Assembly (NCBI GenBank): GCA_964551375.1
Contig: CAZKBG010000001.1
Location: 60,001-92,000, forward strand
Reading direction: 5' to 3'
Source: an uncultured archaeon
GTDB lineage: Archaea; Iainarchaeota; Iainarchaeia; Iainarchaeales; JAAZKV01
DNA length: 32,000 bases
This document shows, piece after piece, positions 2,627-28,948 of the stretch (its first letter is position 1; every line of letters begins with the position of its first letter). Both the position numbers and the translations under genes were made by a program. Below the pieces are notes generated by a model. The model made no database searches. It was given only the letters and a program-made list of their open reading frames with translations, and was not told the DNA's origin.

Positions 2627-3421
2627 CTAAATGCTTTCTTTTATTGCAAAAGTAACTCTTTCCCTTCCGCGAGTTTTTGCCCTGCTGCAAAGCCTATCAG
2701 CAGTGACTTCAGCTCTTTCAATAGAATCTCCTCGTTTCATCCCAACAATTCCCGCGCTGTAATTAAACCTCAATCCTTCCTTTCTTGCTTTTGGATACAT
2801 TTTCCAGCTCTTTAATTCTTCCTGCCTTGCTCTCTCAAATTCAGTTGCAAGAAGCGCTTTTGCCGCTCTTGGAGGCATTGGGAGGTATGCTAAAAATTCA
2901 TCTCCGCCTATGTGTCCGGCAAATCCTCTGGCTTTAGGAACTACTTTTGCAAGTGAATCAGCAAAGGCGGTTAAGAATCCAAGCCCTCCTTCCTTTCTTC
3001 CAAAAAGTGTATTTACTCTTTTGAGTTCATCAATGTCAATATAAACAAGCGAGTGATATCCTTCAGATTGAGTGGATTTTAAAAGCTTTGAAAAGAAAAA
3101 TTCTCTATTAAGCAAGCGGGGAAACTCTTTGTCCCGTGAAGTAAGTTTTGCTTCCTGGAGAAGATAGTGCTGGGTAAGCCCGTGTCTTTTTGCCCTAAAA
3201 CTCTTAATTACTTTTATCTGCTCCGCGATTTTTTCCTTAGGAAAATTTTTTTGAAGCATTAATTCAAGCGTCCTAAATTCTCTTAACAGGCCCTTGTTTC
3301 CAATATCCTGCAATCTCATTAATCCTCTAATTAGTCTTGGTCCATTAGTTATTTTTACTCTCTTCCCCCTCATTTTGTAAAGCGGTTTTTTTATTCCTGT
3401 GCTCTGCGGATTTTGATGCAT
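2627..3421 (-). CDS. GGDEF-domain protein (diguanylate-cyclase-like) with an uncharacterised basic N-terminal region of about 125 aa
   Basis: C-terminal half reads LVYIDIDELKRVNTLFGRKEGG ... FAGHIGGDEFLAYLP ... NYSAGIVGM ... ADRLCSRAKTRGRERV. This is collinear with the GGDEF palm domain (DxDxFKxxND, GGDEF A-site, SxGxA, ADxALYxAKxxGRNR). No RxxD I-site lies upstream of GGDEF. A TATA-like TTAAATA (complement of 3445-3451) lies about 27 nt upstream of the ATG. Confidence 0.75.
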   Translation of the reverse strand: MHQNPQSTGIKKPLYKMRGKRVKITNGPRLIRGLMRLQDIGNKGLLREFRTLELMLQKNFPKEKIAEQIKVIKSFRAKRHGLTQHYLLQEAKLTSRDKEFPRLLNREFFFSKLLKSTQSEGYHSLVYIDIDELKRVNTLFGRKEGGLGFLTAFADSLAKVVPKARGFAGHIGGDEFLAYLPMPPRAAKALLATEFERARQEELKSWKMYPKARKEGLRFNYSAGIVGMKRGDSIERAEVTADRLCSRAKTRGRERVTFAIKESI

Positions 3422-6410: not shown

Positions 6411-6475
6411 AATTACTCTTCTTCTTTGATATATTTAACATATGAGGTTATGCCCAAGATTATAGCATATGTTAA

Positions 6476-6485
6476 TTTTATATTT
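6476..6485 (+). promoter_or_regulatory. TATA box TTTTATATTT about 28 nt upstream of ATG 6508
   Basis: Read directly. It supports ATG 6508 over the track start at 6469. Confidence 0.45.
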
Positions 6486-6507
6486 AGGAAAGTTCTATTT
6501 TCTGTGT

Positions 6508-15222: not shown

Positions 15223-15990
15223 ATGCCAAACACAATAAGCGGTTTTGAGTTTATGTCTAATCCCATAGGCATTACAAAAAAAGCTCTTTTAAATTTGCCA
15301 AACGACGCTTCAGCATTGATAATATTAATTTCAAATCTTCTTTTCATAATAGTTGCCGTGCTTCAAAACGTTTCCCTTCAGGAAGTATGGCTGGTATATT
15401 GGTGCCAGAGCATCATAATAGGATTTTTTGCGCTTCTTAGGATGCTTACTTACAAACTGAAATCAGATTCTTCAAAAGTTAGTGGAATGAAGGAAGTATC
15501 AAGGATTTTTATTGCAGGATTCTTTGTTTTCCACTACGGTTTCTTTCATTTTGTGTATTTAATGTTCATAGGATTCTCATTTATTTCCTCTGCATTTATG
15601 GATGTCTTCACGTCACCCGGCACTATTGTTGATGCCGCGAGCACTGCCCAGTTTGCAGGGCCAAACATGATGCTTGTATTTTTAGGAGCAGTAATTTTCT
15701 TTTTTGCGCACTTGATTTCATTTATTCTAAATTTTGCAAAAGACAACCAGAAAGAATGGGACTTAGGCGAACTGATGTTTGCGCCTTATTCAAGAATAAT
15801 CCCAATGCATATTTCAATAATTGCCGCAGGATTTATCGCAATGTTCCTTGGGATACCTCTGTCTTTAATGTTTGGAGCATCAGGGGCAAGAGCAGTTGAA
15901 GTTGTAATAATAGTATTTTTCCTTGGATTAAAGGTAGTTCTTGATTTGACTTCGCATGACTCTGCTCACCGCTTGGAGCATAATATTTAA
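15223..15990 (+). CDS. Polytopic integral membrane protein, unknown function
   Basis: The 255-aa ORF has about 6-7 hydrophobic segments (for example ALIILISNLLFIIVAVL, IFIAGFFVFHYGFFHFVYLMFIGF, MMLVFLGAVIFFFAHLISFIL). No peptidase A24 Asp motifs were seen. Confidence 0.65.
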   Translation: MPNTISGFEFMSNPIGITKKALLNLPNDASALIILISNLLFIIVAVLQNVSLQEVWLVYWCQSIIIGFFALLRMLTYKLKSDSSKVSGMKEVSRIFIAGFFVFHYGFFHFVYLMFIGFSFISSAFMDVFTSPGTIVDAASTAQFAGPNMMLVFLGAVIFFFAHLISFILNFAKDNQKEWDLGELMFAPYSRIIPMHISIIAAGFIAMFLGIPLSLMFGASGARAVEVVIIVFFLGLKVVLDLTSHDSAHRLEHNI

Positions 15991-17373: not shown

Positions 17374-18390
17374 ATGGCTGATGAGCAAAACCCAGTGCGT
17401 GTTTCAAAAAATGAAAAGTACCGCGGAAAAGTTGTTCAGTTTAGAAACAAAAAAGCTCACCGCGAAGTAATGTCCACTCATTATTCCCTTGATGAGTTAT
17501 TCGGATTTTATAACGCAATGTTTCACACTTATCGAGATATTTATGCGCAGCGCTCCGATGCAATAGTATCTCCTTTGCGCGGTTCGGAGCCTTTAGTGAA
17601 ATCAGTAAAACTTGTTGCAGGGCTTGAAGGGCATTCAAGCGCGCTCCCAAAAGTGTATTATCCAAAAGTGGGGCAGGTAAATTATGGAAAATACTCTGGC
17701 GGAGTAATTCCTCACATAGGGGGAGATTATGCGGTAACCCACAATCAGGTGGAAACAGAGCAAAAGAAAGAAATGAACAGAATTGTTGAAGGGGTATTTA
17801 GAGACGCTCATTATCCAAAGCATCCTAAAAAAAGAATTCTAATCACAGTGCTTGATGAAGTATACAGCGGGGGTTCAATTTCAAAAAATGTCCAGCTGCT
17901 AGAGGAAGCTCTTCAGGAAGTAACCACAAAGAGATTAAAAAAAGGGGGAAAAGTTCCTACTGTTTATATTAGAGTAATTGCAATTGCAAACAAAAATTCT
18001 TACCGCTGCAAAGAGTACCGCTCGCTTCTTTCAAGAGGGATAGTAAAAGAATTTGTTGTTCCAAAACTTTTTACCACTGATTCCCCGCATTTTTTGTATC
18101 CTTTGGTAAAAGAAAGGGCATCGGGAAAATTCCAGTGGCTTAGAAGAGAAAAACCAGTTAAATTAGCTCTTACAAGAAAATCAATTGACGGGCGCTCAAC
18201 TTTGTTTGAAGATTTAGCGTCAATTCACCAGTTAAGAAAACACTGGGGTGTAAAAGACGCGCAGGGATTTAAGCACATGGCAATGCACACTCAAAGAGAG
18301 GTTGCTCTTTTAATGCTTCCAAGACTTCAAAAACGTGCTTATGCGGGCTTTGCAAGAGATATTGGAAGAATTTCAAGATTCAAAAGATAA
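17374..18390 (+). CDS. Hypothetical protein with a possible phosphoribosyltransferase-like (PRPP-loop-like) motif
   Basis: RILITVLDEVYSGGSIS resembles the type I PRTase PRPP-binding loop (4 hydrophobic-D-[DE]-x-x-[ST]-G-x-[ST]). The upstream AIVSPLRGSEPL resembles the PRTase RG loop. No Walker A motif. Confidence 0.4.
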   Translation: MADEQNPVRVSKNEKYRGKVVQFRNKKAHREVMSTHYSLDELFGFYNAMFHTYRDIYAQRSDAIVSPLRGSEPLVKSVKLVAGLEGHSSALPKVYYPKVGQVNYGKYSGGVIPHIGGDYAVTHNQVETEQKKEMNRIVEGVFRDAHYPKHPKKRILITVLDEVYSGGSISKNVQLLEEALQEVTTKRLKKGGKVPTVYIRVIAIANKNSYRCKEYRSLLSRGIVKEFVVPKLFTTDSPHFLYPLVKERASGKFQWLRREKPVKLALTRKSIDGRSTLFEDLASIHQLRKHWGVKDAQGFKHMAMHTQREVALLMLPRLQKRAYAGFARDIGRISRFKR

Positions 18391-18492: not shown

Positions 18493-18972
18493 TTGGCAGA
18501 AATAATCCCTGAAGCAGAATTAATTAGGCGAGAATTTATAGTGAGGCAGATTGACCTCCCAGCTTCAGTAACTTTAACAAAAAAATCGCTTCTAAGATGG
18601 TGCTGTCTCTCGCTTGGCTTAATTTCCCCAAAAGAAACCCGCGACAAGGGATTTTTAGTATTTGACGCGCTCTTTACATTTATCTTTACAAAAAAACAAT
18701 CTCCCACCACAATTGAAATAATGGATTTTATTAAAGAAAAAAACTCCGTTGAAATGAGCGAAAAATTAATCCGCTACCACTTAAACCGCTTAATTGAACT
18801 TGGGGTGATTAAAAGAGACGGACTTACATATTTAATAAATCCTTCTCCTACTTCAGAATCCCGAACTTCAATAAAAGAATCCTACAAATCTTGGGCGAAA
18901 AAACAGCTTGAGGAAGAAATGGACAAAATCAGCGAAGCGCTTGACAAACTACAAAAAAGCTATGAAAAATAG
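18493..18972 (+). CDS. Winged helix-turn-helix DNA-binding protein, first gene of the pilus-like cluster
   Basis: TTIEIMDFIKEKNSVEMSEKLIRYHLNRLIELGVIKRDGLTYLINP is a typical wHTH recognition helix plus wing. TTG start preceded by GGTGG. TATA-like ATTTTATATAC at 18427-18437. Confidence 0.6.
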   Translation: MAEIIPEAELIRREFIVRQIDLPASVTLTKKSLLRWCCLSLGLISPKETRDKGFLVFDALFTFIFTKKQSPTTIEIMDFIKEKNSVEMSEKLIRYHLNRLIELGVIKRDGLTYLINPSPTSESRTSIKESYKSWAKKQLEEEMDKISEALDKLQKSYEK

Positions 18973-18989
18973 GATTTGTTTTAACCTTC

Positions 18990-19014
18990 GCAGGTTTTTT
19001 GCCTGCAATTTTTT
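18990..19014 (+). terminator. Weak hairpin GCAGG-ttttttg-CCTGC followed by AATTTTTT
   Basis: 5-bp stem read directly, 18 nt after stop 18972. It shares the GCAGG/CCTGC arms with the hairpin at 17316-17339. Confidence 0.3.
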
Positions 19015-19096
19015 AGCGTTTTAGTTTAAGGTTTTTCTTTCTAATTACCTTTTTATAGTAAAAGATTGTATTATTCTTGGAAAAATTGGTGTTGTT

Positions 19097-21535
19097 TTGC
19101 CTCCTCTAAAAAAAATGAGTTATGAAGCCAGCCCCGGCGAACTCTATAAAGGAATAACCTCAACAGGCGAAGTTTTTGAAGGCGAAACAAAGCTTGTGAT
19201 GGAAAAAGACCCTGAATTTGTTATTCTTTGCAAAAAAATGTATAAAACTTTTCCCGGATTTGGAGCGGGAGCAAAATTTCCTGAAGAACATTTAGAAGCA
19301 GTGCGATTTCTTGGGTGGCGCTTATCTCCTCAAGAATTTATGGCGGCAGTAAAAGGAACCGCAGTAATAGGAGGAGTGGGCGGATTTATTGCACTCATTG
19401 TTTTAGCATTTGTAGGACTAAGCATTGATTTAGGAATTGGCTCCCCAATAGGACTTGGATTGTTCAGTGAAATGCTCGGCGATTTTGCAATGGTAATAAT
19501 TCTCGCAGGAGGAGTAGTCCTTTTTGGAATTGTGGGCGCAATTGCATACACAATTTATGTAACTCCAATAAACATGGCTGAGGATGAAAGAACAAGAGCG
19601 CTTACGTATGTTCCCGAAATGATTGGATATTTAATAATGTCAATGAAACTTGTTCCAAATTTAGAAAAAGCAATTGAATTCTCCGCAAAGCACGGAAAAG
19701 GAAAAGTTGCGGACGATTTTAACAAAGTTATTTGGGATTTTCAGAACGGATTTTACTCCTCAATCAGCGAAGGGCTTGACGCAATGGCTTTTAGATGGGC
19801 AAAGTACTCCGTTGAACTAAAAGAAGCTTTAATGAAAATAAGGGCAAGTGTAATGGAGCCAAGCGAATCAAAAAGATATTCTCTTTTAGACAAAACAATG
19901 CTTGATGTTCTTGACAGTGTTAAGGATAAAATGGGGGATTATGCAAGAAGCTTAAACCAGCCATCAGTAATGCTGTTCTATATTGGAGTCTTGCTCCCTT
20001 TATTACTTGTAATAATTCTTCCAGTGGGCTCAGCATTTTCAAACATGCCATTTGCAACAACCCCAATTCTTGTTGGAATTTACTGTTTCATGATTCCTTT
20101 CATGGCATTTAGCTTTGCAAAAGGAGTGATTAAGAAAAGGCCTCCTACTTACGAGCCTCCAGTTATTACCGATAATTTTGCAGGACTTCCGCCAAAATGG
20201 TCAATGAAACTTGGCGGGGGAATGATTGACGCGCGTCTTGCAGTAATAGGAATATTAATTTTAGGAATAGCAGGCTCTTTTATTATTTCATTTGAAGGAA
20301 TTCCTCCAAAGCATTTATTTCCAATAGAAGATGGAATATTCCAAGTTCCAATCCAAATAATTCCAGCAGATCCACAGCCAGATGAACTTTACAAAGATTT
20401 TTTAGGCGGAAAGAATTATTTTGAAAAAGTTGTGCTTGATTTGTACGCATTTCAAATAGGCGAAGGATTTGGCGGAGGATTAAAAGAAGGGGAAAGATAC
20501 AAACAGTTGATTAAAGAACAAGTATCTCCAGTAGCAGCAGAAATTCAAGTAGTAAAAGAACGTCTTGATTTTACTTCAAAATCAGCAAGAAACGATCCAA
20601 CAAAATATGTGTTCTGGGCAGGGCTTATTTTAACAATCGCATGCGCTGGAAGCTTCCTTTTGTATCATAGAAATATTTACAAACTCAAAGCGCAGGAGCA
20701 AATTGTTCAAATGGAAGATGAATTCAAAGAATCAATGTACATGATTGCTTCAAGAATGGGGGAGAACAAGCCAGTTGAAAGCGCATTAAAGCAGGCAAAA
20801 GAATATTTGCCAAACCTCTTAGTCAGCAAAAGAATTTTTGGAAAAACCGTTGAAAATATTGAGCTTATGGGACTCCCTCTTGAGAACGCAGTGTTTGACC
20901 CGGTGTATGGAGCAATGCGCGGAATTCCCTCAAAAATTTTAACCACCGCAATGCGACTGCTTGTTGATTCAGTAACTCTTGGAGTGGAAGTTGCGTCAAG
21001 AACCCTAATGTCACTCTCGCTTCAAATGGAAAACATGGACAAGGTAAACAAATCCCTAAAAGACATGGTTTCGGATGTAACAACCACTATGTCCACTATG
21101 GCGATTTTTATTGCGCCAATGGTTCTTGGGATAACTACCGCGCTTCAAAAAGTTGTGCTAAATACACTTGGTAGTGTAGTATCCTCTCCGTCTCTTGAAG
21201 CAACAGGAAGCGTTGGAGACATTAGCGGGGGAGCAGGAAGCCAAATCCTTCAATCCACTGGCCTTGGCGGAGGAATGGGGGATATTAACAGTATTTTCAG
21301 CGTGAGTATAGATGCTTTCCGCTCATTTGCAACTCCTCTTGAATACATGCTGATAATTGGAACATACGTTGCAATGATAGTAATAATTCTAACTTATTTC
21401 ACTGTGAAAATAAAAGAAGACAATGACTTGATATTTAGAGTAACTCTTGCAAAACAACTTCCAATCGCAATGGCGGTTTACTTATTCACAACCGTTGCTG
21501 CAAATTTAATGGTTGGAGGATTGATGTCAAGGTAA
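19097..21535 (+). CDS. FlaJ/TadC/PilC-like polytopic membrane platform protein (two T2SS-F-like cytoplasmic repeats), unusually long at 812 aa
   Basis: There are two helical soluble segments, each followed by TM helices. Segment 1: YVPEMIGYLIMSMKLVPNLEKAIEFSAKHGKGKVADDFNKVIWDFQNG...EGLDAMAFRW. Segment 2: DEFKESMYMIASRMGENKPVESALKQAKEYLPN...ENAVFDPVYG...ILTTAMRLLVDSVTLG. This matches the archaeal FlaJ/TadC layout. No Walker motifs. Start is TTG 19097 (GGTG 5 nt upstream) or ATG 19115. Confidence 0.6.
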   Translation: MPPLKKMSYEASPGELYKGITSTGEVFEGETKLVMEKDPEFVILCKKMYKTFPGFGAGAKFPEEHLEAVRFLGWRLSPQEFMAAVKGTAVIGGVGGFIALIVLAFVGLSIDLGIGSPIGLGLFSEMLGDFAMVIILAGGVVLFGIVGAIAYTIYVTPINMAEDERTRALTYVPEMIGYLIMSMKLVPNLEKAIEFSAKHGKGKVADDFNKVIWDFQNGFYSSISEGLDAMAFRWAKYSVELKEALMKIRASVMEPSESKRYSLLDKTMLDVLDSVKDKMGDYARSLNQPSVMLFYIGVLLPLLLVIILPVGSAFSNMPFATTPILVGIYCFMIPFMAFSFAKGVIKKRPPTYEPPVITDNFAGLPPKWSMKLGGGMIDARLAVIGILILGIAGSFIISFEGIPPKHLFPIEDGIFQVPIQIIPADPQPDELYKDFLGGKNYFEKVVLDLYAFQIGEGFGGGLKEGERYKQLIKEQVSPVAAEIQVVKERLDFTSKSARNDPTKYVFWAGLILTIACAGSFLLYHRNIYKLKAQEQIVQMEDEFKESMYMIASRMGENKPVESALKQAKEYLPNLLVSKRIFGKTVENIELMGLPLENAVFDPVYGAMRGIPSKILTTAMRLLVDSVTLGVEVASRTLMSLSLQMENMDKVNKSLKDMVSDVTTTMSTMAIFIAPMVLGITTALQKVVLNTLGSVVSSPSLEATGSVGDISGGAGSQILQSTGLGGGMGDINSIFSVSIDAFRSFATPLEYMLIIGTYVAMIVIILTYFTVKIKEDNDLIFRVTLAKQLPIAMAVYLFTTVAANLMVGGLMSR

Positions 21536-21609
21536 AGCAGATTACTGCTTGAATGCCTTGGCACTTAACTAATTAAAATTAAATGAAGTTTTGATTTTGA
21601 GGGGATGAA

Positions 21610-22092
21610 TTGGATAACAAAGGACAGGCAGAAGCAGTATTCCGCCTTATGATTGACTCAATAATTGGGCTTGCAATTTTAATGATAATAATAGCATCAA
21701 TAGGCTACTTTGATGAACTAAGATTTATCCAGTCAACTTCTGATTTTAAACAGCTTGTAAAAGATGCAGTAAATTCTCCTGATGGGACTCTTCTCTCCGC
21801 AAAAGAATTAACATTTAAAGACGGCGCAGGATTTGCAGCGGATGACTTTGAAGGATACACAGTAGTAAACAGAAAATGCTTCTCCTTTTTCTCTTCCTTT
21901 GCTTCAGTTGAAGTATCAGATGATGCCCAAGCAGTGCTCTTCAAACAAAGGCTCATTGCTTCGGTAAGCGCAAGGTGCATTCCAAATGCAGCAGCATCTT
22001 CATGCATATCAAGCGTTGATGCTGAAATAACTTCAGACAGCGACTGCTGCTTTAAGTGCGAAATATACTTTGGCAGAGTTCCTCAAAATTAA
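21610..22092 (+). CDS. Prepilin-like exported protein P1 (class III signal peptide), Cys-rich
   Basis: (TTG)DNKGQAEAVFRLMIDSIIGLAILMIIIASI has K-G/Q followed by a hydrophobic helix. SD-like GAGGGGA lies 4-5 nt upstream of the TTG. There are 6 Cys in the mature part. Paralogous to P2 (shared KGQ..VF.LMI...AILM, TFKDG/TMKAG, C-terminal CC). Confidence 0.65.
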   Translation: MDNKGQAEAVFRLMIDSIIGLAILMIIIASIGYFDELRFIQSTSDFKQLVKDAVNSPDGTLLSAKELTFKDGAGFAADDFEGYTVVNRKCFSFFSSFASVEVSDDAQAVLFKQRLIASVSARCIPNAAASSCISSVDAEITSDSDCCFKCEIYFGRVPQN

Positions 22093-22137
22093 TCTTAATT
22101 GGATTAAAACCCTTAATTGCCCGCCAAAAAAGGCAAG

Positions 22138-22145
22138 TTTAAATA
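22138..22145 (+). promoter_or_regulatory. Strong TATA box TTTAAATA inside the operon, about 50 nt upstream of ATG 22191, followed by SD-like AAGGGGGA
   Basis: Read directly. The only pilin-like gene in the cluster with both a consensus-like TATA box and an SD. Confidence 0.45.
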
Positions 22146-22190
22146 CTTCAAAGTTCTTTTTCCTAAAGTGAATTCCTAAGGGGGATTATA

Positions 22191-22727
22191 ATGTTTAAGT
22201 TGAACCAGAAAGGACAGCAGTTCAGTGTTTTTGAGCTGATGATTGCGGGTATTGTAGCTTTTGCAATCTTGATGCTTTTACTCACAATAATAATGAAAGT
22301 TGATATCGGTGGACAGGGCGGAAATCCAAAATCAGTAATTGAAAACGGAATTTCAAGCGCATTGCCATCATCAACAATAACAACAAATAATTTTACAATG
22401 AAAGCCGGAGATGAAGTGACTTCGGAGGATTTGATAAACAAAACAGGGCTTGATGCTTCAAGAATATACTTTGTCGCAGGTCAAATGAAGCTTGATACAG
22501 ATGTAACAATAGTAGAACTCGACGACGGCGGAGCATCTTTAACAAACAAACGCTCAGGCGATTTAAGAGTTAGAGCAAAAGTAATTTGCAAAGCAAATGG
22601 ACTTTCAGTTGCAGGCGCTCTTGAGAGACTAGGAGACAAATATGATGTTTCTTCATTTTCTGATAGCATGTGCGAAGAAGACAATCAGTCATGCTGTGTA
22701 GTAGTGCTTGAAAAACCAGGCAACTAA
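22191..22727 (+). CDS. Prepilin-like exported protein P2 (class III signal peptide), candidate major subunit
   Basis: MFKLNQKGQQFSVFELMIAGIVAFAILMLLLTII. It has its own TATA and SD upstream and a T7 run plus 12-bp hairpin downstream. 4 Cys. Confidence 0.7.
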   Translation: MFKLNQKGQQFSVFELMIAGIVAFAILMLLLTIIMKVDIGGQGGNPKSVIENGISSALPSSTITTNNFTMKAGDEVTSEDLINKTGLDASRIYFVAGQMKLDTDVTIVELDDGGASLTNKRSGDLRVRAKVICKANGLSVAGALERLGDKYDVSSFSDSMCEEDNQSCCVVVLEKPGN

Positions 22728-22731
22728 AGAG

Positions 22732-22770
22732 TTTTTTTGAATAGAAAAGAAGTATTATATACTTCTTTTC
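22732..22770 (+). terminator. T7 run followed by a perfect 12-bp hairpin GAAAAGAAGTAT-tat-ATACTTCTTTTC (22744-22770) just after the P2 stop
   Basis: All 12 positions pair and the loop is 3 nt. It is followed by actatttcttttt. The hairpin apex reads TATTATATA and could double as a TATA element. Confidence 0.5.
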
Positions 22771-22794
22771 ACTATTTCTTTTTGAGAGATTAAA

Positions 22795-22950
22795 ATGTCT
22801 AAGTCAAGCATACTTAAAGAAGAAGCTGCAGCAGGGGATTTTGGCGCGGTTTATATGATATTAGTTTTCGCAATAGTAGCGCTGTTATTGGTTCTAATAG
22901 TAAAGCCGATGTTTCAAAGCGCGCAAAAATCAATCCCAAAAGCGCAATAA
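22795..22950 (+). CDS. Unannotated 51-aa membrane mini-protein P3 (Flp-like layout); below the ORF-track length cut-off
   Basis: My translation: MSKSSILKEEAAAGDFGAVYMILVFAIVALLLVLIVKPMFQSAQKSIPKAQ*. It has a short polar leader ending in G, one strongly hydrophobic helix and a short basic tail. It fills an otherwise empty 290-nt gap in the operon. Confidence 0.45.
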   Translation: MSKSSILKEEAAAGDFGAVYMILVFAIVALLLVLIVKPMFQSAQKSIPKAQ

Positions 22951-23020
22951 TTTTTAATTTTCTAAATTAGTTTTTGTATTTTAGTGGTTTGTTTTAGTAG
23001 TTTAGAGTTTTGGTGTTGTA

Positions 23021-23605
23021 ATGAAGTTTATCCGCAAAAATAAAGGGCAGGTTTCTGCTCCGTTTGAGCTTTTAGTTGCGGTAGTAATAATGGCTTTTGT
23101 AGTAATTGTAGGCTGGAAAGTATTAACCGACGCAAAACTCCAATCCTGCCTTAACACAGTGGATAAATCAATGACTGATTTTAAAATAAATCTTGAAGAC
23201 ACTGCGAATAGAAGAAGCGAGAATTTTTTTAATTTCAGCCCTGACAGGACCTGTTTTTATTCAAAAGATTCCGCAATGAAGATTTATCTTGAAAAGAGTT
23301 CAAGCGTCTGTGCGGCGATATGCAAGCGCCCCGTGCAGGAGTGCTATGTGCTAAAATTTGCAAACCAATCAATTCCAAACGCAGCTAAAAATAAATGCCT
23401 TGAGCTTCCGACTTATACAAGCTTCACCGCGTCAGGCGATTTGTGTACTAATATTGACCAAACTCTTTATCGTGGTTATGAGCCTGTGAATCCGCTTGGG
23501 GATGACGGGGATAATTTAGGAATCGGACAGTATGTTTTCAAGTATGTTGCGCTTCAGGGACAGGCATTCCCGCAGATTTGCATTTGGTTTAGGCCAAGCG
23601 GCTGA
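23021..23605 (+). CDS. Prepilin-like exported protein P4 (class III signal peptide), 8-Cys domain
   Basis: MKFIRKNKGQVSAPFELLVAVVIMAFVVIVGW. The mature domain has 8 Cys. Paralog of P5. Confidence 0.7.
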   Translation: MKFIRKNKGQVSAPFELLVAVVIMAFVVIVGWKVLTDAKLQSCLNTVDKSMTDFKINLEDTANRRSENFFNFSPDRTCFYSKDSAMKIYLEKSSSVCAAICKRPVQECYVLKFANQSIPNAAKNKCLELPTYTSFTASGDLCTNIDQTLYRGYEPVNPLGDDGDNLGIGQYVFKYVALQGQAFPQICIWFRPSG

Positions 23606-23619
23606 TGAAGTGATAAAAT

Positions 23620-24162
23620 ATGCTTGAAAAAATAATCCTTGCAGTGATTCTAATTGTTGCCGTGATTGGAGTAGTATACTACGGTCAGGACATTACCCCC
23701 GCTCTTGGGGCAGGGTGCAGCAATAATTCAAAGTTAAGCATTGAATCCTCAATTAAGGAATTTCGAATGGGGATCGAAACGGCAATGAAAGGCTCTGATT
23801 ATGAATTTACATTTGCTCCTGATAGGGACTGCTTTGAATCAAAAGACTCTTCATTTAAGATTGAGTACATTACAAACATGTCGCTTTGCGGAGCGCTGTG
23901 CGATAATCCAGAAGATGAATGCAGAATGCTTGTTTACACAAACCCCACAGGATTTCCTTACAATAAAGTATCAACTTTTTGCATAAATAATTCAAAGTAC
24001 ATGGGGTTTGCTTTTGACAATGCTTCATGCGGAAATATTCCCCAAGGATACGTTCCAATAAATCCAATTAAGGAGGATTTAAATTCAGGGAAATACTTGA
24101 TTAGGAATATGTCGCTTCCGCAGAACTCTCCTCGGATTTGCATATTGTATAAAGCAAGCTAA
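23620..24162 (+). CDS. Exported/membrane-anchored 8-Cys protein P5, a paralog of P4 that lacks the K-G-Q prepilin motif
   Basis: N-terminus MLEKIILAVILIVAVIGVVYYG is a hydrophobic helix with no [KR]GQ. It shares FxPDRxCFxSKDSxxKI, CxAxC, xEC, GYxPxNP and xICI with P4. All 8 Cys are collinear. Confidence 0.7.
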   Translation: MLEKIILAVILIVAVIGVVYYGQDITPALGAGCSNNSKLSIESSIKEFRMGIETAMKGSDYEFTFAPDRDCFESKDSSFKIEYITNMSLCGALCDNPEDECRMLVYTNPTGFPYNKVSTFCINNSKYMGFAFDNASCGNIPQGYVPINPIKEDLNSGKYLIRNMSLPQNSPRICILYKAS

Positions 24163-24181
24163 CTTAGCAAGTTGAAGTTTG

Positions 24182-24218
24182 GCGGGTTAAGTTAAGTAAG
24201 TGGGTTTAAGTTAAGAAA
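24182..24218 (+). repeat. Tandem direct repeat GCGGGTTAAGTTAAGTAA / GTGGGTTTAAGTTAAGAAA in a 101-nt intergenic gap inside the operon
   Basis: Read directly. The surrounding gap (24163-24263) is saturated with AAGTT(A/G)A units. Confidence 0.6.
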
Positions 24219-24263
24219 GTTAAACAGGATGAAGTTAAAGGTTATTTTCAAAAAGGTGTTAAG

Positions 24264-25085
24264 TTGTTAGGATTTGTTTTAGGAAAAATGCAGATGCTGT
24301 TTTTTGCAGTAGGGGTTGCAGTTGTCGCGCTTTTATTTTACAACTTTATAGTAACTCTTGGGCTTCATCAAGATGCAAATAATATGCTTCTTACTAATGC
24401 CAGAATTGTTTCAGACCAATTGAACAGCGATTTAACCTGCTCGTTCAAAACAACTTCCATTCAGGACAGATTTTACTATGGGATTGGCGGAATTCCGCTT
24501 TATTATGATTTAGAAATGACAAAGCAGAGCTTTGGGGATGCGTCGCTAGGAAACCAGCAAAACCAGCTGATTATGAGAATTGTTGAGCATAAATCCTCCA
24601 CCCGCCAGAATCAGACAAAAAATGTTCTTGCCACAAAAGCAATTCTAACAGATGCGCAAATAGTTCTAATCGACCCGGGATTTTTGAAAGAATTAGCGGG
24701 AATCAGCGATGTCCACTATAATAAAGATATTATTGCGCTTTATCCAAGAGCCGGCTCTTCAAGCGAACTTCAAGCATCTTCTCCTGATTCTTTTGTTGCG
24801 CTAAAAGAAATTGAGAACGGAAAAACAACCATTTACATAATCCCTTGCGCGACAGCAAAAGAAAGCCAGTCAAATAACTGTCTGAATAACATTCTAAGAC
24901 TTGGGTGCTATAAACTTTCAAAAGAATACACAGGAAATCTTAATGCAGATAACCCTCTTCTTCCATCCTGCTTTAATGTAACAACACAACTGGGTCCTGA
25001 AATTGAGCGCTCAAAGAACTTCCGCTGGGCTGACTGCTCTAATGTCGGATTTGTTAACGCAAACATTGGAATGTACACTCCCTAA
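24264..25085 (+). CDS. Exported protein P6 with an N-terminal hydrophobic anchor (273 aa), 6 Cys
   Basis: (TTG)LGFVLGKMQMLFFAVGVAVVALLFYNFIV. AAGGTG lies about 8 nt upstream of TTG 24264. Alternative ATG starts are 24288 and 24294. No family recognised. Confidence 0.55.
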   Translation: MLGFVLGKMQMLFFAVGVAVVALLFYNFIVTLGLHQDANNMLLTNARIVSDQLNSDLTCSFKTTSIQDRFYYGIGGIPLYYDLEMTKQSFGDASLGNQQNQLIMRIVEHKSSTRQNQTKNVLATKAILTDAQIVLIDPGFLKELAGISDVHYNKDIIALYPRAGSSSELQASSPDSFVALKEIENGKTTIYIIPCATAKESQSNNCLNNILRLGCYKLSKEYTGNLNADNPLLPSCFNVTTQLGPEIERSKNFRWADCSNVGFVNANIGMYTP

Positions 25086-25137
25086 AGCAAATCAAAACTA
25101 TTATTAATAAAGAAGAGTTACTTGTGGTAGTGGGTTT

Positions 25138-25713
25138 ATGTTTAAATCAAAAAAAGGTTTTATTGGCCCGATTGGGGACGACTTGCCTTCACTTGTTCCA
25201 ATAGTTGTATCTCTGCTTTTGTTTTTCACAACTTTCACCCTTGCGCTTAATACTTATAATACAAAAAATGCTTTCATAAACCAGCAGACTGAAATGACTT
25301 CGGTTGCGAGAGAATTAAAGGGAGATTCTCTGATTTTGGGAGTGGATTGGTTTGAAAATAAATGCAAACAGCTCAAAATGAAAAGATATCCAAATAATTT
25401 CATTGCGGCGATTTATGATTCAGATGTTGAAATGAATTTAATAATGGCGGATTTTTTAGGGCTCTCAGCAACAAATCCCACGCTTGACCCTACTGCCGCG
25501 ACTTTATTAAAATCCGTATCCCAGTCAGACGGCTCCCAAAAACCATTTTACTGCGAGTACAAAAAGATTGGCGCGCAGCCATTTTCAGCGAGCTCAAAGA
25601 AGCGCTATCAGGTGAGATTTTATCCGGTTGCAGTTCAATATGGATTTACTGCGGCAGGAACAACTAATCACTTAATTATCCCTGGATTAATGGCGATGGT
25701 GGTTTGGGAATGA
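25138..25713 (+). CDS. Exported protein P7 with an N-terminal anchor (191 aa); possible atypical prepilin motif K-K-G/F
   Basis: MFKSKKGFIGPIGDDLPSLVPIVVSLLLFFTTFTLAL. The C-terminus is beta-strand-like (HLIIPGLMAMVVWE). Confidence 0.55.
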   Translation: MFKSKKGFIGPIGDDLPSLVPIVVSLLLFFTTFTLALNTYNTKNAFINQQTEMTSVARELKGDSLILGVDWFENKCKQLKMKRYPNNFIAAIYDSDVEMNLIMADFLGLSATNPTLDPTAATLLKSVSQSDGSQKPFYCEYKKIGAQPFSASSKKRYQVRFYPVAVQYGFTAAGTTNHLIIPGLMAMVVWE

Positions 25714-26525
25714 ATAATTTCTCAATTTTAAATAGAAGAGGGCAGGCGGCGCTTGTTGACTCGCTCTTTTTCATTGCAATTGTCTCAATAGTATGCACCG
25801 GGCTTTTTTACTTTACAATAAATTACGGCACTTCAACAGAGACTTTGTTAAATTCATTTTATGCCTCGGACTTTTCAATGGACTCTCTAAAAGTAATTTC
25901 TTATGTTAATGTAATGCGTGACGGAACAGGCGTTTCATCGCAATCAGTATCAGGCGCAGGAGCAAATCCTGCCCAGTTTGATTATATGCTTGCAATGATT
26001 AAGGAAGATTATGCAAGAAACAGGGAAGTAAGCTTTCAGACAAAAACCGCAATTGCAAACACAATCCACTCCGTCTTAAAACCGTTTGACGATTCCACTG
26101 ATTATGTTTTTTACATTAAAAGAGAAGGAGGGGATGTTTCAGGAAAACAATTTTTGGCATTTATCATAGCTACAAGAAAATGCACTGGGGATTGCTGTGA
26201 CGGAGAATGCACTCCGACTCCGGGGGATCCTCAATTAAGCGTTGAAAGAACTTATTATGCGTGCAATCCAGCGCAAGAGAATGTAATGCAGAAATTTGTC
26301 TATCCTTATGTCGGCAGGGTTGATTCAGCAGTGGGAAGAATTGCACTAAGCGACTTTGCAGGGAATTACACTTATTATTTGATGGGAATTGATTTGTGGG
26401 TTGCGAAGAAAACCAAAGCGACTGATGATATTGTCTCAAAATCAGAAGAAACAGATCCAGCATTAAGGGAATCGGATTTTGACTGCAACAGAATTCCAAT
26501 TACTCCTGTTGCCGGGGCGCCTTAG
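25710..26525 (+). CDS. Prepilin-like exported protein P8 (class III signal peptide), Cys-cluster domain
   Basis: MNNFSILNRRGQAALVDSLFFIAIVSIVCTGLFYF. ATG 25710 overlaps the P7 stop (ATGA, 25710-25713), which suggests translational coupling. Internal cluster KCTGDCCDGEC. Confidence 0.65.
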   Translation: MNNFSILNRRGQAALVDSLFFIAIVSIVCTGLFYFTINYGTSTETLLNSFYASDFSMDSLKVISYVNVMRDGTGVSSQSVSGAGANPAQFDYMLAMIKEDYARNREVSFQTKTAIANTIHSVLKPFDDSTDYVFYIKREGGDVSGKQFLAFIIATRKCTGDCCDGECTPTPGDPQLSVERTYYACNPAQENVMQKFVYPYVGRVDSAVGRIALSDFAGNYTYYLMGIDLWVAKKTKATDDIVSKSEETDPALRESDFDCNRIPITPVAGAP

Positions 26526-26580: not shown

Positions 26581-27465
26581 TTATCTGGAAGTCTTTGTCC
26601 CACATTTTGGGCATAAATAGGAATCGCCCTGTTTTTTTGAGCACTTATCACAAAATGCAGTTCCGCAGTTAGGACAGTATAAAATTTTATCAGTATCCTT
26701 TTTGCAATTAGGGCATTCTTCTTTATCATCAAGCTCAATTCCGCCTATGTCATCCTCTTTAATGTCTTCAATGCTTGAAATATCATTCATTCCAGAGCCA
26801 GAAGAATCATCGCCCAAATCAAGGCTGAAATCATCATCAAAATTTTTCTTTTTCTGTTTGTCCTGCCTTTCATTATTTCCAAGAATATCCTTAATATCCC
26901 CAATCGGCGCCGTCTGTTCATCCGGGCCTATTGAATTTGTATTTTGTTTATCCTCTCCAGGCATTACTCTTCCAGAGTCAGCTCCTCTTCGCCCTCTCCT
27001 TTGACTTTGTCCGTGTGAAACTGGGGCGGCTGTTAATCCTTTTTCCGCAGCAAGCTCGTTAATATTGGAATTTTTTAATTGAGTAAAAAGATTCTCTGCA
27101 ATAGTGTCAGATTCTTTTTGATTTGGAAGCCTCTTATTTTCTCTCTTAAATTTCTCAATTTCATTAAGCGCAAGTTTTTCTTCAAGATTCTTCTCTTGGA
27201 TTTTTTTAAATTCTTCAGCATTCTTCTGGTCCATTTCAAGATTTACATCCTCATAATCCATTGTCGGAATGTGGCTAAGTATGCTTCTTCCAGTAGGAGA
27301 CTCATTATCTTCCTCATTTTTTTGCTGTCTATTTTGCAAAAATCTCCCGCTATTCTGCTCCCTATAAGGCGCGTTGTATCCTTCATTGTACTGCTCTTTC
27401 TTCTGCTCTGCAGTGCGGTAAAAACGCATCATCCTTCTTGGGACTTTTTCATCCATAAAAATCAT
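26581..27465 (-). CDS. Acidic low-complexity protein with C-terminal tandem zinc ribbons
   Basis: C-terminus ECPNCKKDTDKILYCPNCGTAFCDKCSKKQGDSYLCPKCG has four CxxC pairs. It is preceded by an Asp/Glu/Ser-rich stretch (DDDFSLDLGDDSSGSGMNDISSIEDIKEDD). Confidence 0.65.
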   Translation of the reverse strand: MIFMDEKVPRRMMRFYRTAEQKKEQYNEGYNAPYREQNSGRFLQNRQQKNEEDNESPTGRSILSHIPTMDYEDVNLEMDQKNAEEFKKIQEKNLEEKLALNEIEKFKRENKRLPNQKESDTIAENLFTQLKNSNINELAAEKGLTAAPVSHGQSQRRGRRGADSGRVMPGEDKQNTNSIGPDEQTAPIGDIKDILGNNERQDKQKKKNFDDDFSLDLGDDSSGSGMNDISSIEDIKEDDIGGIELDDKEECPNCKKDTDKILYCPNCGTAFCDKCSKKQGDSYLCPKCGTKTSR

Positions 27466-27506: not shown

Positions 27507-28226
27507 TTATTCTTTTTCATCTCCAAGCTCGTTTAATAGTCCTTCTTCAATCTCTTCAATTTCTTCATCCTCTTCCTTATACGCTTCCTCTTTTTTCTTC
27601 TTGCCTGTGGATTTTTTCTTGTCGTTAATATCAAGCGCCATTTGTCTTAATTTTGCAAGCGCGGCATTCTTCTGCTCCTTATTTGATTTACTTTCAAGTT
27701 CTTTTGTGTTTTTATCAATAACCTTTAGCACATTAGTGTTTTTGTCCTTAAAAACCTGATTTTTTATCATAGCAGGAGTAACTTTAGGAGTCGGACTGCT
27801 TCCTTTAGTCATCAACCCTTCTTCAAATCTAATCCTATCCGCCACAGGCATTTTCTCTTCCTTTGTAAGCCCCATTTTTGGAATAGCAACTTTTCTCTTC
27901 TTTTCCTCAACAAAAATTTCAGGATCAGCCTCTTCATGATACATTCTTTTTGCAAATGCAATTCCCATCAAAATAACATACATAGTTATTCCAAGCAAAA
28001 AGAAGTAATCCGAATTCATTCCTCCAAGCACTATTGCAGCAATTGGAATTCCAAAAATTAAAGCACCCGCTCCGTATCCATAAGCGATTTTATTAGTCAA
28101 AGCCTCAAGCTGAACATTAGGCATAGCAGTTCTTACTACCGAGTACCCAACGGAGAAACTCCCAAGCAAGAAAAAAGCATAAATAAGTTCCTGCATCAAA
28201 CCAAATCCTGTTCCTAATGCAATCAT
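27507..28226 (-). CDS. Membrane protein (about 4 TM helices) with a long Lys/Glu-rich cytoplasmic tail
   Basis: The N-terminal 100 aa are hydrophobic. The C-terminal half is KKKSTGKKKKEEAYKEEDEEIEEIEEG-like. Confidence 0.6.
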   Translation of the reverse strand: MIALGTGFGLMQELIYAFFLLGSFSVGYSVVRTAMPNVQLEALTNKIAYGYGAGALIFGIPIAAIVLGGMNSDYFFLLGITMYVILMGIAFAKRMYHEEADPEIFVEEKKRKVAIPKMGLTKEEKMPVADRIRFEEGLMTKGSSPTPKVTPAMIKNQVFKDKNTNVLKVIDKNTKELESKSNKEQKNAALAKLRQMALDINDKKKSTGKKKKEEAYKEEDEEIEEIEEGLLNELGDEKE

Positions 28227-28354
28227 AAAAGTTTTTTGTAGTATTTATTAGTTCTCCTATTCAAAATGCGCCAAAATTGCAACTTTTAATAAGCCAAAAT
28301 TAAGTCCAAAAGTTAGGGGGTAATTCTTTTATACTATTAATGCGTTATTTTTTC

Positions 28355-28948
28355 ATGGAATTAGTAGAAGTAATATTTGCTATTTTTGATTTTCTAAAAC
28401 TGGCGATTCCGCTCACAATCCTTGTTTTTGTGCTCTATAAGGCATTTTCCCCCGCAAAATTATGGCTTATTGAAAAGTATAATTTATCCTGGATGAAATC
28501 AGTAATCCTGCTAAATTTCATTATTGTTTTTGTATCTCTATTAGTATTTTATTTTTATTTTGTTCTCACAGGAACATTAGGCGCGGCTCCAATGGACCCT
28601 GATCTTCAATATACTTTAGGCGAGAATGCAATAATGGTTCTAATAGGAGCAGTTAGAGTTCTTGTTGCTGCAGTAATTCTCACACTCATTGTTTTGTTCT
28701 TTGAATTTATAGCAAGCCTTGCAATGGATTCAAATATAATAAAATTTGGGGCAAATACTGTAAAATCAAAAAAACATTCTTCTGAAGGGGCATCAATGGT
28801 GATGCAGATATTTGGCGTATTTGTTTCAGTAGTGATATTTTTGATTCTATTTTTGTTCATATTCGCATGGGTTCCACTTGGGCTTGTTGTATTCATTTTT
28901 TACGGCGGAGTAAAGGAAATTCCTCTGCTATTGATAGGGTTGATATGA
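28355..28948 (+). CDS. Polytopic membrane protein, unknown function
   Basis: The track start is ATG 28340. ATG 28355 sits about 25 nt from TATA-like TTTTATAC (28327-28334). There are about 5-6 hydrophobic segments. Confidence 0.6.
   Translation: MELVEVIFAIFDFLKLAIPLTILVFVLYKAFSPAKLWLIEKYNLSWMKSVILLNFIIVFVSLLVFYFYFVLTGTLGAAPMDPDLQYTLGENAIMVLIGAVRVLVAAVILTLIVLFFEFIASLAMDSNIIKFGANTVKSKKHSSEGASMVMQIFGVFVSVVIFLILFLFIFAWVPLGLVVFIFYGGVKEIPLLLIGLI

Follow-up and report, generated by a model that had tools for sequence, protein, structure and literature searches.

Does this locus encode a new kind of surface apparatus, or a type IV pilus (T4P) system with one part displaced? The window, that is, the whole 32-kb stretch of DNA analysed here, contains a run of genes that a preliminary description had read as a type-IV-pilus-like operon. 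It had noticed a FlaJ/TadC-like platform protein and small exported proteins, but neither an ATPase nor a prepilin peptidase. It offered two explanations: a satellite locus that borrows these enzymes, or a divergent surface apparatus. The small DPANN archaeon it guessed as the organism agrees with the lineage, Iainarchaeia/Diapherotrites. For the locus itself, we favour the reading that the region is the platform-plus-pilins part of a T4P-like system whose ATPase was split off by a rearrangement, and we assign it a probability of roughly 0.7.

All the listed ORFs are confirmed on the + strand of the 32-kb window. The operon consists of ten genes: wHTH, the platform and eight small ones, counting the 51-aa gene. 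A slash marks a putative cleavage site.

18493-18972, + strand: wHTH, 159 aa, probable winged-helix DNA-binding protein
19097-21535, + strand: platform, 812-aa polytopic membrane protein of the T2SSF (FlaJ/TadC/PilC) superfamily
21610-22092, + strand: P1, 160-aa pilin-like protein, MDNKG/QAEAVFRLMIDSIIGLAIL, 6 Cys
22191-22727, + strand: P2, 178-aa pilin-like protein, NQKG/QQFSVFELMIAGIVAFAIL, 4 Cys
22795-22950, + strand: mini, 51-aa single-helix membrane protein, 0 Cys
23021-23605, + strand: P3, 194-aa pilin-like protein, KNKG/QVSAPFELLVAVVIMAF, 8 Cys
23620-24162, + strand: P4, 180-aa paralogue of P3, 8 Cys
24264-25085, + strand: P5, 273 aa, N-terminal anchor MLG/FVLGKMQMLFFAV, 6 Cys
25138-25713, + strand: P6, 191 aa, invariant KKG/F-[IL]-GPIGDDLPSLIP followed by a helix, 2 Cys
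25704-26525, + strand: P7, 273-aa pilin-like protein (271 aa from ATG 25710), NRRG/QAALVDSLFFIAIVSIV, 7 Cys

The genes are co-directional, as first described. The count of eleven genes with nine small proteins does not stand, and the starts given in that description also yield eight small ones. Its short gaps and single overlapping pair are correct: intergenic distances are at most 124 bp, and P6 and P7 overlap by 10 nt. SD-like motifs of the GGTG/GGGG/GAGG type do set the operon apart. They lie within 18 nt upstream of 8 of its 10 genes, versus 1 of the 21 other genes in the window. No frameshifts or truncations are present among the operon ORFs. Compared with the closest relative (L006), dN/dS values range from 0.02 to 0.18 across all operon genes, within the clade where platform and ATPase genes are separated (the split clade). 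So, the operon genes are conserved and under purifying selection. These values and the same-order orthologues in dozens of loci mean that the genes are real and not chance ORFs.

The call of a wHTH protein holds in part. Residues 75-110 show sub-threshold Pfam matches to HTH_5, HTH_24 and HTH_12 (E 0.01-0.03), whereas a profile search found no relative among solved structures. Its orthologues are 72-92% identical (dN/dS = 0.036) and appear only in L002, L005 and L006, all without an adjacent ATPase. Only the split subclade has this gene immediately before the platform. It has no similarity to the ATPase.

The platform presents about 10 TM segments; its N-terminal domain is cytoplasmic and conserved, and an insert lies in the centre. 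In the database the protein begins at ATG 19115, which gives 806 aa. The AF2 model of the platform is all-helical (pLDDT 73.6), and sequence comparison reveals no internal repeat. On its own, the window protein matches no Pfam family, T2SSF included. Neither profile nor model gives a significant match to solved PilC or GspF. Both results would fit a scenario in which the 812-aa protein and the small ones form a membrane complex that has no relation to type IV filaments, the T2SSF matches and KGQ motifs being convergent.

The homologues argue against such convergence. The platform is homologous over its full length to hundreds of proteins, some of which pass the T2SSF cut-off (PF00482, 25.2 bits) on one or the other half. 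Among 16 close homologues, 13 match PF00482 at E <= 1. Four homologues, three of them among the 16, exceed the cut-off with 26.0-27.4 bits at residues ~175-305. By profile search the family comprises 918 representative clusters, and 21 of 40 distant members match T2SSF (best E 1.5e-11). The second half of two members, P0416 and P0391, matches T2SSF or Spore_III_AB. Full-length alignments at E below 1e-60 link the platform to proteins passing the T2SSF cut-off, with both halves covered. The platform is placed in the T2SSF superfamily because full-length homologues pass the Pfam cut-off. The FlaJ/TadC-like assignment is therefore borne out through the homologues, although the PF00482 search proposed for 19097-21535 fails on the protein itself.

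The small proteins share a second kind of evidence. P1, P2, P3, P6 and P7 carry the motif [KR][GA]/[QF] ahead of a hydrophobic helix, and this motif is conserved inside each orthologue group. P1 orthologues, at the same operon position, keep N-x-K-G-Q..F.LLI. In P2, NQKGQAFSVFELMIA is almost invariant among relatives, and in P3 the conserved form is [KR]GQ-x-SAPFELLVAVIIM. P1 is weakly similar to P2 and P3. P3 is the sole operon protein with an NCBIfam class III signal match, a weak one (TIGR04205, E 0.13). The class III N-termini first attributed to P1, P2, P3 and P7 are confirmed. P6, described as having only an anchor, carries KKG/F and therefore is also a candidate for cleavage. Elsewhere in the window, a screen of all 119 ORFs with 50 aa or more shows the motif only in one likely false positive and in two upstream genes:

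6469-8409, + strand: SBBP beta-propeller protein, 646 aa, canonical class III signal QKG/QGTIEYLVIIAVV
10199-11458, + strand: class III signal protein, 419 aa, canonical HKG/QGAIEYLLIIGV, PF04021 E 9e-4

The remaining three small proteins differ from this pattern. P4 begins at its hydrophobic helix, with no leader. It is 33% identical to P3 (E 5e-27) and present in the window organism's Logan contig, but it is not a separate gene in L006 or in other loci. P5 has no basic residue before Gly, and its orthologues have the common N-terminus MLGF[TI]LSK[IM]N[LM]L. The mini protein is among the best-conserved small genes (41-90% identity over loci; dN/dS 0.023). Ahead of the helix, its distant orthologues show E-[KR]-A-Q-SEW, whereas the basic residue is lost in the window's clade (EEAAAGDFG).

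The Cys counts agree with those given earlier, since one of the seven in P7 lies in the N-terminal helix and 6 in the mature domain. Their even numbers suggest disulfide bonds stabilising globular heads. The AF2 model of P7 (pLDDT 76.1) predicts that positions 6-40 form one long N-terminal helix and that the head is alpha/beta, its five long strands running antiparallel; this gross architecture is pilin-like in the model. The head has no significant PDB fold match. The PF04021 search proposed for the small ORFs gives no match for any operon protein, and the same is true for any other pilin family. These silent HMMs and the lack of structural matches again fit an unrelated complex. Nevertheless, a class III-type N-terminus common to five separate proteins speaks against it, as does the T2SSE ATPase, a bona fide one, that immediately adjoins the platform in most relatives. 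We regard an unrelated complex as extremely improbable. The identity as a T4P-like system, first proposed for this operon, is upheld by the T2SSF homologues, at least five conserved class III-like N-termini and that adjacent ATPase.

Where is the ATPase of this operon? The searches agree that the 32 kb contain no FlaI/PilB-type ATPase or A24 peptidase. No T2SSE-type ATPase is detectable in the window, and the only P-loop enzyme there is an XPD helicase (12535-14508, - strand). An A24 peptidase was detected neither in the window nor among 68 polytopic ORFs from ~0.9 Mb of related loci. In ~35 related loci, a 760-aa T2SSE ATPase adjoins the platform upstream, in the order ATPase-platform-P1-P2-mini-P3-P5-P6-P7. 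This enzyme is FlaI/GspE/CpaF-like (2OAP, E 2e-32; 4II7, E 3.6e-24). Loci L001, L003 and L004 have it immediately upstream of the platform; L002, L005, L006 and the window have a platform with no adjacent ATPase. Conversely, the ATPases at least 83% identical to P0127 are all without an adjacent platform. A 985,290-bp contig from a split-clade relative carries both halves, the platform operon at 85-107 kb and the ATPase beside a giant gene at 213-236 kb, ~120 kb apart.

The ATPase is most probably absent here because a rearrangement in this lineage moved the operon halves apart. It is a local operon split in this subclade and no new mechanism. From the first of the two early explanations, the ATPase encoded elsewhere is supported, but the satellite is not: the locus is the distal part of a once-contiguous operon. 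The absent ATPase and peptidase had also been taken as signs of an unusual apparatus; for the ATPase, the rearrangement accounts for it. An unlinked peptidase would be no oddity either. PibD/FlaK-type peptidases are broad-range, most archaeal genomes with such an ATPase have at least one A24 peptidase, and within the archaeal census only EppA is described as typically inside its own pilus loci (PMC4858521).

The window organism's own ATPase may be P0141, on L060, although the evidence is circumstantial. The window is identical (100% nucleotide identity) to Logan contig L059 from run SRR12133404. P0141 is in the sister run SRR12133403, in split context, and its cluster-mate P0246 is in a sister sample of L006. 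Divergence is concordant, with a nucleotide identity of 81-83% for L060/L061 versus 78-82% for the window and L006. The GC values also match (0.391 and 0.380; 0.346 and 0.342).

An operon with no adjacent ATPase could instead be a remnant that is non-functional or works independently of an ATPase; its products would then be no more than disulfide-rich surface proteins anchored in the membrane. The ATPase is missing from the 32 kb, and none could be assigned to the 946,135-bp contig of the window; the leaderless P4 and the motif lost from mini point the same way. However, purifying selection is strong on every gene of the split clade, including the platform, and the ORFs are intact. The split layout is kept over several species (window, L002, L005, L006), and the ATPases of this clade are intact and conserved. 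A remnant is very unlikely.

In the window, the operon is followed by four genes:

26581-27465, - strand: Zn-ribbon neighbour, 294 aa, acidic, C-terminal Zn-ribbon with weak Zn-ribbon Pfam matches
27507-28226, - strand: membrane neighbour, 239 aa, charged C-terminal tail, conserved position
28340-28948, + strand: four-TM neighbour, 202 aa, conserved, just upstream of the giant gene
29082-32000, + strand: giant secreted protein, N-terminal 970+ aa, Sec-type signal (…LILANPGFAYA), exceeding the window

The Zn-ribbon gene has syntenic orthologues in at least 15 loci, and giant + strand genes occupy the same post-operon position in L002-L006. The four-TM protein was considered as an A24 peptidase or an archaeosortase and was negative in all tests run. 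In relatives, outside the window, the ATPase neighbour belongs to the archaeosortase family: 7 of 7 proteins score 26-45 bits with TIGR04178 (cut-off 23), with Cys, Arg and His invariant. They reach no named subfamily cut-off (ArtA-F or the Xrt series). These small archaeosortases form an unnamed subfamily. Together with a giant surface protein, they are tightly linked to the ATPase, a link with no earlier report in the literature searched.

For the favoured reading, a displaced ATPase, these observations suggest the following sequence of events. The ancestral block would have been on the + strand, with the 760-aa FlaI/GspE/TadA-type ATPase, a T2SSF platform of ~800 aa with two repeats, and seven distinct proteins of pilin-like or anchor type (P1, P2, mini, P3, P5, P6, P7). 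Its upstream neighbours would have been a giant surface protein and the small gene of the archaeosortase family. On the downstream side would have come the Zn-ribbon gene, a pair of membrane genes and the second giant protein, a secreted one. In the subclade, the rearrangement separated the ATPase from the platform. The half with platform and pilins would have gained the small wHTH gene at its head, while the ATPase remained with the archaeosortase and giant genes elsewhere in the genome. In the cell, the N-terminal helix would insert P1, P2, P3, P7 and probably P6 into the membrane. An unlinked prepilin peptidase may cut these subunits after [KR]-G. The platform, driven in trans by the unlinked hexameric ATPase, would extract and polymerise them into a surface filament. 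P4, P5 and mini might be unprocessed membrane-anchored accessory subunits. The evidence directly demonstrates homology, synteny, the split, purifying selection and the conservation of the signal motifs; cleavage, polymerisation, the choice of major subunit and any part in adhesion or host attachment are predictions.

A broader proposal joins the ATPase, the platform, the seven subunits, the archaeosortase-family protease and the two giant proteins in one DPANN-specific host-contact organelle of Iainarchaeia and Micrarchaeota. No A24 peptidase is linked anywhere, and therefore maturation could involve a non-canonical enzyme. If true, this filament or attachment device would have a subunit set and a processing unlike every characterised archaeal pilus. 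We find it quite unlikely.

Iainarchaeia conserve the system, as do some MAGs labelled Micrarchaeota. The operon is a recognisable, though undescribed, form of archaeal T4P systems. DPANN 'dark-matter' T4P islands with an ATPase, a TadC-like platform and then unrecognisable signal-peptide proteins predicted as pilins were reported before (PMC6393860, Fig. 2A). Makarova, Wolf and Koonin (2019; PMC6393860) made the same general observation with a generic example only. What goes beyond it here is the conserved order of seven genes, the split of the operon, the family sizes and the link to an archaeosortase. A run of "hypothetical proteins" becomes a defined gene set for type IV filaments, one that is widely conserved. 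Iainarchaeia and related DPANN are uncultivated, and the P1-P7 families can now be named and targeted by proteomics, cryo-ET and antibodies on enrichments. The archaeal T4P census is anchored on the ATPase gene (PMC4858521). With such detection, which is common, the platform-pilin half of the split subclade would be missed, a caution for automated T4P detection in genomes with split operons. The link of the ATPase to an unnamed archaeosortase subfamily and a giant surface protein is, as judged from the papers searched, a fresh lead.

Among known systems, the Epd pili of Methanococcus maripaludis likewise have a complex locus with several distinct pilin-like proteins, each of them required. EppA substrates have signal peptides ending in K-G with Gln at +1. 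That Gln is the only feature of the Epd criterion common to the operon proteins, and the major pilin may be very small in both. Epd pili were rejected as an identity for the operon. None of the loci examined has an EppA-type 9-TM peptidase or any A24 member, and the pilin-like proteins lack the PF04021/DUF361 match. Both the 760-aa ATPase and the ~800-aa platform are also far larger here, and the DPANN lineage is outside the census of Makarova et al. (2016), where Epd belongs to ATPase clade 1.

A T4P-like machine could also build a short pseudopilus for secretion or DNA/nutrient uptake, in which the fixed-order subunits act as piston or tip. Bacterial comG and T2SS pseudopilin operons have an ATPase, a platform and several distinct pilin-like genes. 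The ancestral order here matches them, its five to seven different pilin-like genes following in a fixed sequence. Each of the seven subunits has its own ancient orthologue group, with no array of interchangeable pilin copies, and P5 has a G/FTL-like N-terminus as in bacterial prepilins (its cleavage site is putative). DPANN archaea have reduced genomes and little metabolic capacity, and the cultivated ones rely on hosts. However, no secretin-like component, ComEC/ComEA-like channel or PilD-type peptidase appears in the loci inspected. The ATPase belongs to the archaeal FlaI/GspE2/TadA type (ComGA 50.7 bits, cut-off 300; GspE 34.4, cut-off 630), and the leaders are archaeal-style [KR]-G/Q. The conserved giant surface proteins better fit adhesion, and adhesive Epd pili likewise need several minor pilins (PMC4858521). 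A pseudopilus is unlikely.

The archaellum (FlaI/ArlI-FlaJ/ArlJ) has a homologous ATPase and platform, and FlaI is the best NCBIfam match of the ATPase and among its best solved matches. It was rejected at 147.5 bits with the FlaI equivalog NF058587 (cut-off 550); the window and the loci inspected have no archaellins or FlaF/G/H/C-D-E genes. The Sulfolobus bindosome (BasEF and BasABC) also combines an ATPase, a platform and small pilin-like proteins, and here two large class III-signal surface proteins (6469-8409, 10199-11458) are nearby. It was rejected at 68.6 bits with BasE NF053672 (cut-off 1000). In contrast to the sugar-binding proteins of the bindosome, one of these two is a beta-propeller and the other is uncharacterised. 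The product of 6469-8409 matches PF04021 (E 1.1e-4) and PF06739 and may be another substrate or cargo of this T4P-like machinery.

The operon at 18493-26525 encodes, with a probability of about 0.7, a working type IV filament system with an unlinked motor gene. All the open reading frames of the preliminary description are present, on the + strand. There are ten of them instead of eleven, coding for a protein of 159 aa, the platform protein of 812 aa and eight small proteins. The cysteine numbers reported for the small proteins were right, and they are listed here with the genes in their order.

18493-18972, + strand: 159-aa protein, called a wHTH protein
19097-21535, + strand: 812-aa platform protein, of the T2SSF superfamily
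P1, + strand: 160 aa, 6 Cys
P2, + strand: 178 aa, 4 Cys
mini, 22795-22950, + strand: 51 aa, 0 Cys
P3, + strand: 194 aa, 8 Cys
P4, 23620-24162, + strand: 180 aa, 8 Cys
P5, + strand: 273 aa, 6 Cys
P6, + strand: 191 aa, 2 Cys
P7, + strand: 273 aa, 7 Cys, one of them within the N-terminal helix

The genes are closely packed, as described, with gaps of at most 124 bp; the overlapping pair is the last two genes (10 nt). Elements similar to Shine-Dalgarno (SD) sequences had been proposed as specific to the operon. We found GGTG/GGGG/GAGG-type motifs at 18 nt or less from the start in 8 of the ten operon genes and in 1 of the 21 other genes of the window. Many of the latter have an A/T-rich TATA-like box about 25-35 nt 5' of the start. 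The 20 non-operon genes without the motif are consistent with leaderless transcripts. The ratio dN/dS, calculated against the closest relative (locus L006, platform 86% identical), is 0.02-0.18 for each operon gene. To judge from these sequences, the operon genes are real and functional.

The call of a wHTH protein at 18493-18972 is based on sub-threshold HTH matches; a profile search against solved structures gave no structural support. A leftover of the ATPase N-terminus was ruled out for this protein, as the sequences have no similarity.

The platform had been described as similar to FlaJ/TadC. Neither it nor the small proteins of the window has a significant match in Pfam or NCBIfam. Taken as a single sequence, the platform thus has no T2SSF-type similarity; the family context reverses this result. 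PF00482 matches at E <= 1 in 13 of 16 close homologues. In a separate count, four homologues, with 26.0-27.4 bits, exceed its gathering cut-off of 25.2 bits; each of these matches covers residues ~175-305. An indexed search detected 289 homologues of the 812-aa protein; where given, the source names are Candidatus Diapherotrites, Iainarchaeum or "archaeon". An identical (100%) copy is on a contig of 946,135 bp. The exhaustive profile search gave 918 representative clusters, 407 of them at E <= 1e-30. Many distant members have 600-750 aa and miss the central insert; a T2SSF match was present in 21 of 40 such members (best E 1.5e-11). In one homologue (P0416) this match is located in the second half. 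In another (P0391), it is Spore_III_AB, a GspF-like domain family, that matches the second half. Because of the PF00482 matches in homologues and these second-half matches, the platform family has the two-repeat architecture of FlaJ/TadC/PilC. A comparison of the two platform halves with hhalign, made on close homologues, detected no sequence repeat. The AF2 model (pLDDT 73.6) consists of helices throughout, and residues 504-773 mirror the helix pattern of residues 130-346. Foldseek against the PDB found nothing significant for this model; a PilC model (3jc8_Ca) ranked fourth (E 1.4). When the two platform alignments A1 and A3 were used as profiles, no solved structure matched significantly either (GspF 2VMB/3C1Q, E 1.1).

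The lack of a T2SSE ATPase in the 32 kb was borne out by Pfam and NCBIfam. In related loci L001, L003 and L004, with platforms 45-58% identical, a PF00437 ATPase of 761-768 aa is encoded immediately 5' of the platform. A tblastn survey of 58 loci extended this observation. Where the ATPase is no more than 81% identical to P0127, the reference T2SSE ATPase, most loci have the order ATPase-platform-P1-P2-mini-P3-P5-P6-P7. At 83% identity to P0127 or more, none of the ATPases has an adjoining platform. The homology chain to T2SSF and this ATPase adjacency make it very improbable that the proteins form a complex with no relation to type IV filaments.

In the window, L002, L005 and L006 (platforms 65-86% identical within the clade), the ATPase is missing 5' of the platform, and the wHTH gene takes its place. 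A contig of 985,290 bp carries both halves: the platform operon at 85-107 kb and the ATPase at 213-236 kb. There, genes for a 338-aa protein and the wHTH protein lie 5' of the platform operon, as in the window. The ATPase still adjoins a 2,980-aa protein, likewise its neighbour in unsplit genomes. Both halves and the old ATPase neighbour on one contig show that the operon was cut between ATPase and platform in the ancestor shared by this subclade, with the ATPase kept. So, the absence is true of the window, but synteny gives its cause as a lineage-specific operon split. The operon could also be read as a dead or ATPase-independent remnant. This is quite improbable, since the operon is under purifying selection and the split arrangement persists across species.

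For the split system, the cognate ATPase would be P0141, 83% identical to P0127. None of the best 120 ATPase homologues was recorded on a contig of 946,135 bp, the length of the contig with the identical platform copy. The window corresponds to a Logan contig from run SRR12133404 (100% nucleotide identity), and P0141 comes from the neighbouring run SRR12133403. A 90% cluster-mate of P0141 comes from JGI sample Ga0247842, the sister of Ga0247841, where L006 originates. At the nucleotide level, the loci L060 and L061 compare at 81-83%, and the window and L006 at 78-82%. The GC contents also pair up (0.391 with 0.380; 0.346 with 0.342). On this circumstantial evidence, P0141 is probably the cognate ATPase, encoded on a second contig (96,961 bp) of the same genome. 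Its surroundings consist of a giant gene, an archaeosortase-like gene and the ATPase; the platform is missing. By type, P0141 belongs with FlaI/GspE/CpaF (2OAP, E 2e-32); it has an N-terminal extension of ~290 aa. It is below the cut-off of every named equivalog, e.g. FlaI, BasE, TadA, ComGA and GspE.

We scanned all 119 window ORFs of at least 50 aa for class III signals, defined as [KR][GA]/[QF] followed by a hydrophobic stretch (the slash marks the predicted cut). The positives were P1, P2, P3, P6, P7, the ORFs 6469-8409 and 10199-11458, and one likely false positive. The class III N-termini proposed for P1, P2, P3 and P7 were recovered; P6, previously considered anchor-only, has the motif too. 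Every small protein except P4 has its own orthologue group, a fixed position and a characteristic N-terminus.

P1, conserved: N-x-K-G/Q…F-x-L-L-I
P2, conserved: NQKG/QAFSVFELMIA
mini, in distant relatives: E-[KR]-A/Q-SEW; degenerate in the window's clade, with the basic residue lost
P3, conserved: [KR]G/Q-x-SAPFELLVAVIIM
P5, conserved: MLG/F-[TI]-LSK, with Gly but no preceding basic residue
P6, invariant: KKG/F-[IL]-GPIGDDLPSLIP
P7, conserved: [KR]G/QAA-x-TDALFF

With its E-[KR]-A-Q-SEW motif before a single helix, mini would be a mini-pilin candidate of ~45 aa in the distant relatives. Its orthologues (51-65 aa, a single helix) are among the most conserved small genes. P3 has a leaderless paralogue in P4 (33% identity, E 5e-27), which keeps all 8 Cys. 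The window organism has P4; the fetched relatives' loci all lack it, that of the closest relative included. P4 starts straight at the hydrophobic helix, like a processed pilin. PF04021 and other pilin models match none of the small proteins. The model of P7, from an alignment of 32 sequences, has a pLDDT of 76.1. Its N-terminal helix has 35 residues, and its alpha/beta head contains five long strands in antiparallel arrangement. The gross layout of this model is that of a type IV pilin. Against the PDB, Foldseek gave no significant neighbour for it, only GFP-like matches (TM about 0.16).

Likewise, no A24 prepilin peptidase is encoded in the 32 kb (Pfam, NCBIfam), in agreement with the preliminary description. 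None was present among 68 polytopic membrane ORFs in ~0.9 Mb of related loci. Most archaeal genomes with such an ATPase have at least one A24 peptidase, the substrate range of PibD is broad, and only EppA is described as often inside pilus loci (Makarova et al. 2016, PMC4858521). The absence from the locus is therefore unremarkable. Two window proteins were rejected as candidates. The 4-TM protein at 28340-28948 misses the GxGD motif of a minimal prepilin peptidase and has no family match; it is also outside the archaeosortase HMM family. The protein at 15223-15990 is a confident member of another family, DUF6498.

In the proposed mechanism, an unlinked peptidase would cut the prepilin-like subunits after [KR]-G. 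They would then be polymerised by the T2SSF platform, which a P0141-type ATPase would power in trans.

Four genes 3' of the operon are syntenic in many loci:

26581-27465, - strand: Zn-ribbon protein
27507-28226, - strand: membrane protein
28340-28948: 4-TM protein
from 29082 past the window end at 32000: giant protein with a Sec signal, >970 aa inside the window

In L002-L006, genes for >1,500 aa lie in the syntenic position 3' of the operon. This Sec-signal protein and the giant protein adjoining the ATPase are not related. The fixed series of distinct subunits would also suit a ComG/T2SS-like pseudopilus serving uptake or secretion. We consider this unlikely, since a channel component was not found and the nearby giant surface proteins suit adhesion better.

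In 36 loci outside the window, a membrane protein of 165-300 aa is encoded divergently 5' of the T2SSE ATPase. This is a small exosortase/archaeosortase-family gene (L060:8310-8948(-), L007:9202-9870(-), L061:9161-9799(-), L001:6520-7050(-) and 32 other loci). The protein passes the TIGR04178 signature (26-45 bits against 23) and is below every named subfamily cut-off. Its Cys, Arg and His are invariant. A protein of 2,700-3,000 aa with an N-terminal anchor adjoins this gene. It was rejected as the archaeosortase substrate, as neither a TM segment nor a sorting signal is present at its C-terminus.

The system works like archaeal type IV pili. Membership tests place it outside the archaellum, the bindosome and the Epd pili. 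The 2016 census of archaeal type IV pili has no DPANN/Diapherotrites entries (PMC4858521). A 2019 review states, in general terms only, that in some DPANN genomes an ATPase-TadC island precedes predicted pilins that cannot be recognised by similarity (PMC6393860). Genome papers just mention that type IV pili are present, and we found no description of this operon in the literature searched. What is new is a conserved, unnamed set of DPANN genes for a type IV filament whose core proteins are oversized, its seven private subunit families and its association with a small archaeosortase.

Among the other products of the window are an XPD helicase and additional proteins with class III signals; Rfam and tRNA scans found no rRNA or tRNA genes in the 32 kb. 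The ORFs 6469-8409 (646 aa, SBBP beta-propeller repeats) and 10199-11458 (419 aa) have canonical DUF361-type class III signals (KGQG-x-IEYL), unlike those of the operon proteins. Both may be surface proteins relying on the same peptidase or machinery as the operon proteins.

The 338-aa protein at 17374-18390 has no family match. By eye, ILITVLDEVYSGGS looks like a phosphoribosyltransferase PRPP-binding motif. In L005 its gene is conserved 5' of the wHTH gene, and L002 has it too. In L006 (15733-17288), two additional genes interrupt the pilin operon in its middle, between P5 and P6, and an AbiEii-family toxin (PF08843) is the product of one.

About 1/12 of the ATPase homologues among the matches listed have 1,270-1,290 aa. 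They carry inserted intein and LAGLIDADG homing-endonuclease domains (PF14890, PF14528), and they are P0142, P0146, P0153, P0155, P0172, P0173, P0202, P0204, P0206 and P0215. GGDEF proteins are uncommon in archaea. Finally, a GGDEF diguanylate-cyclase domain (PF00990, E 3e-16) is present in a 264-aa protein of the window (2627-3421, - strand), together with a weak match to the Cas10 palm.
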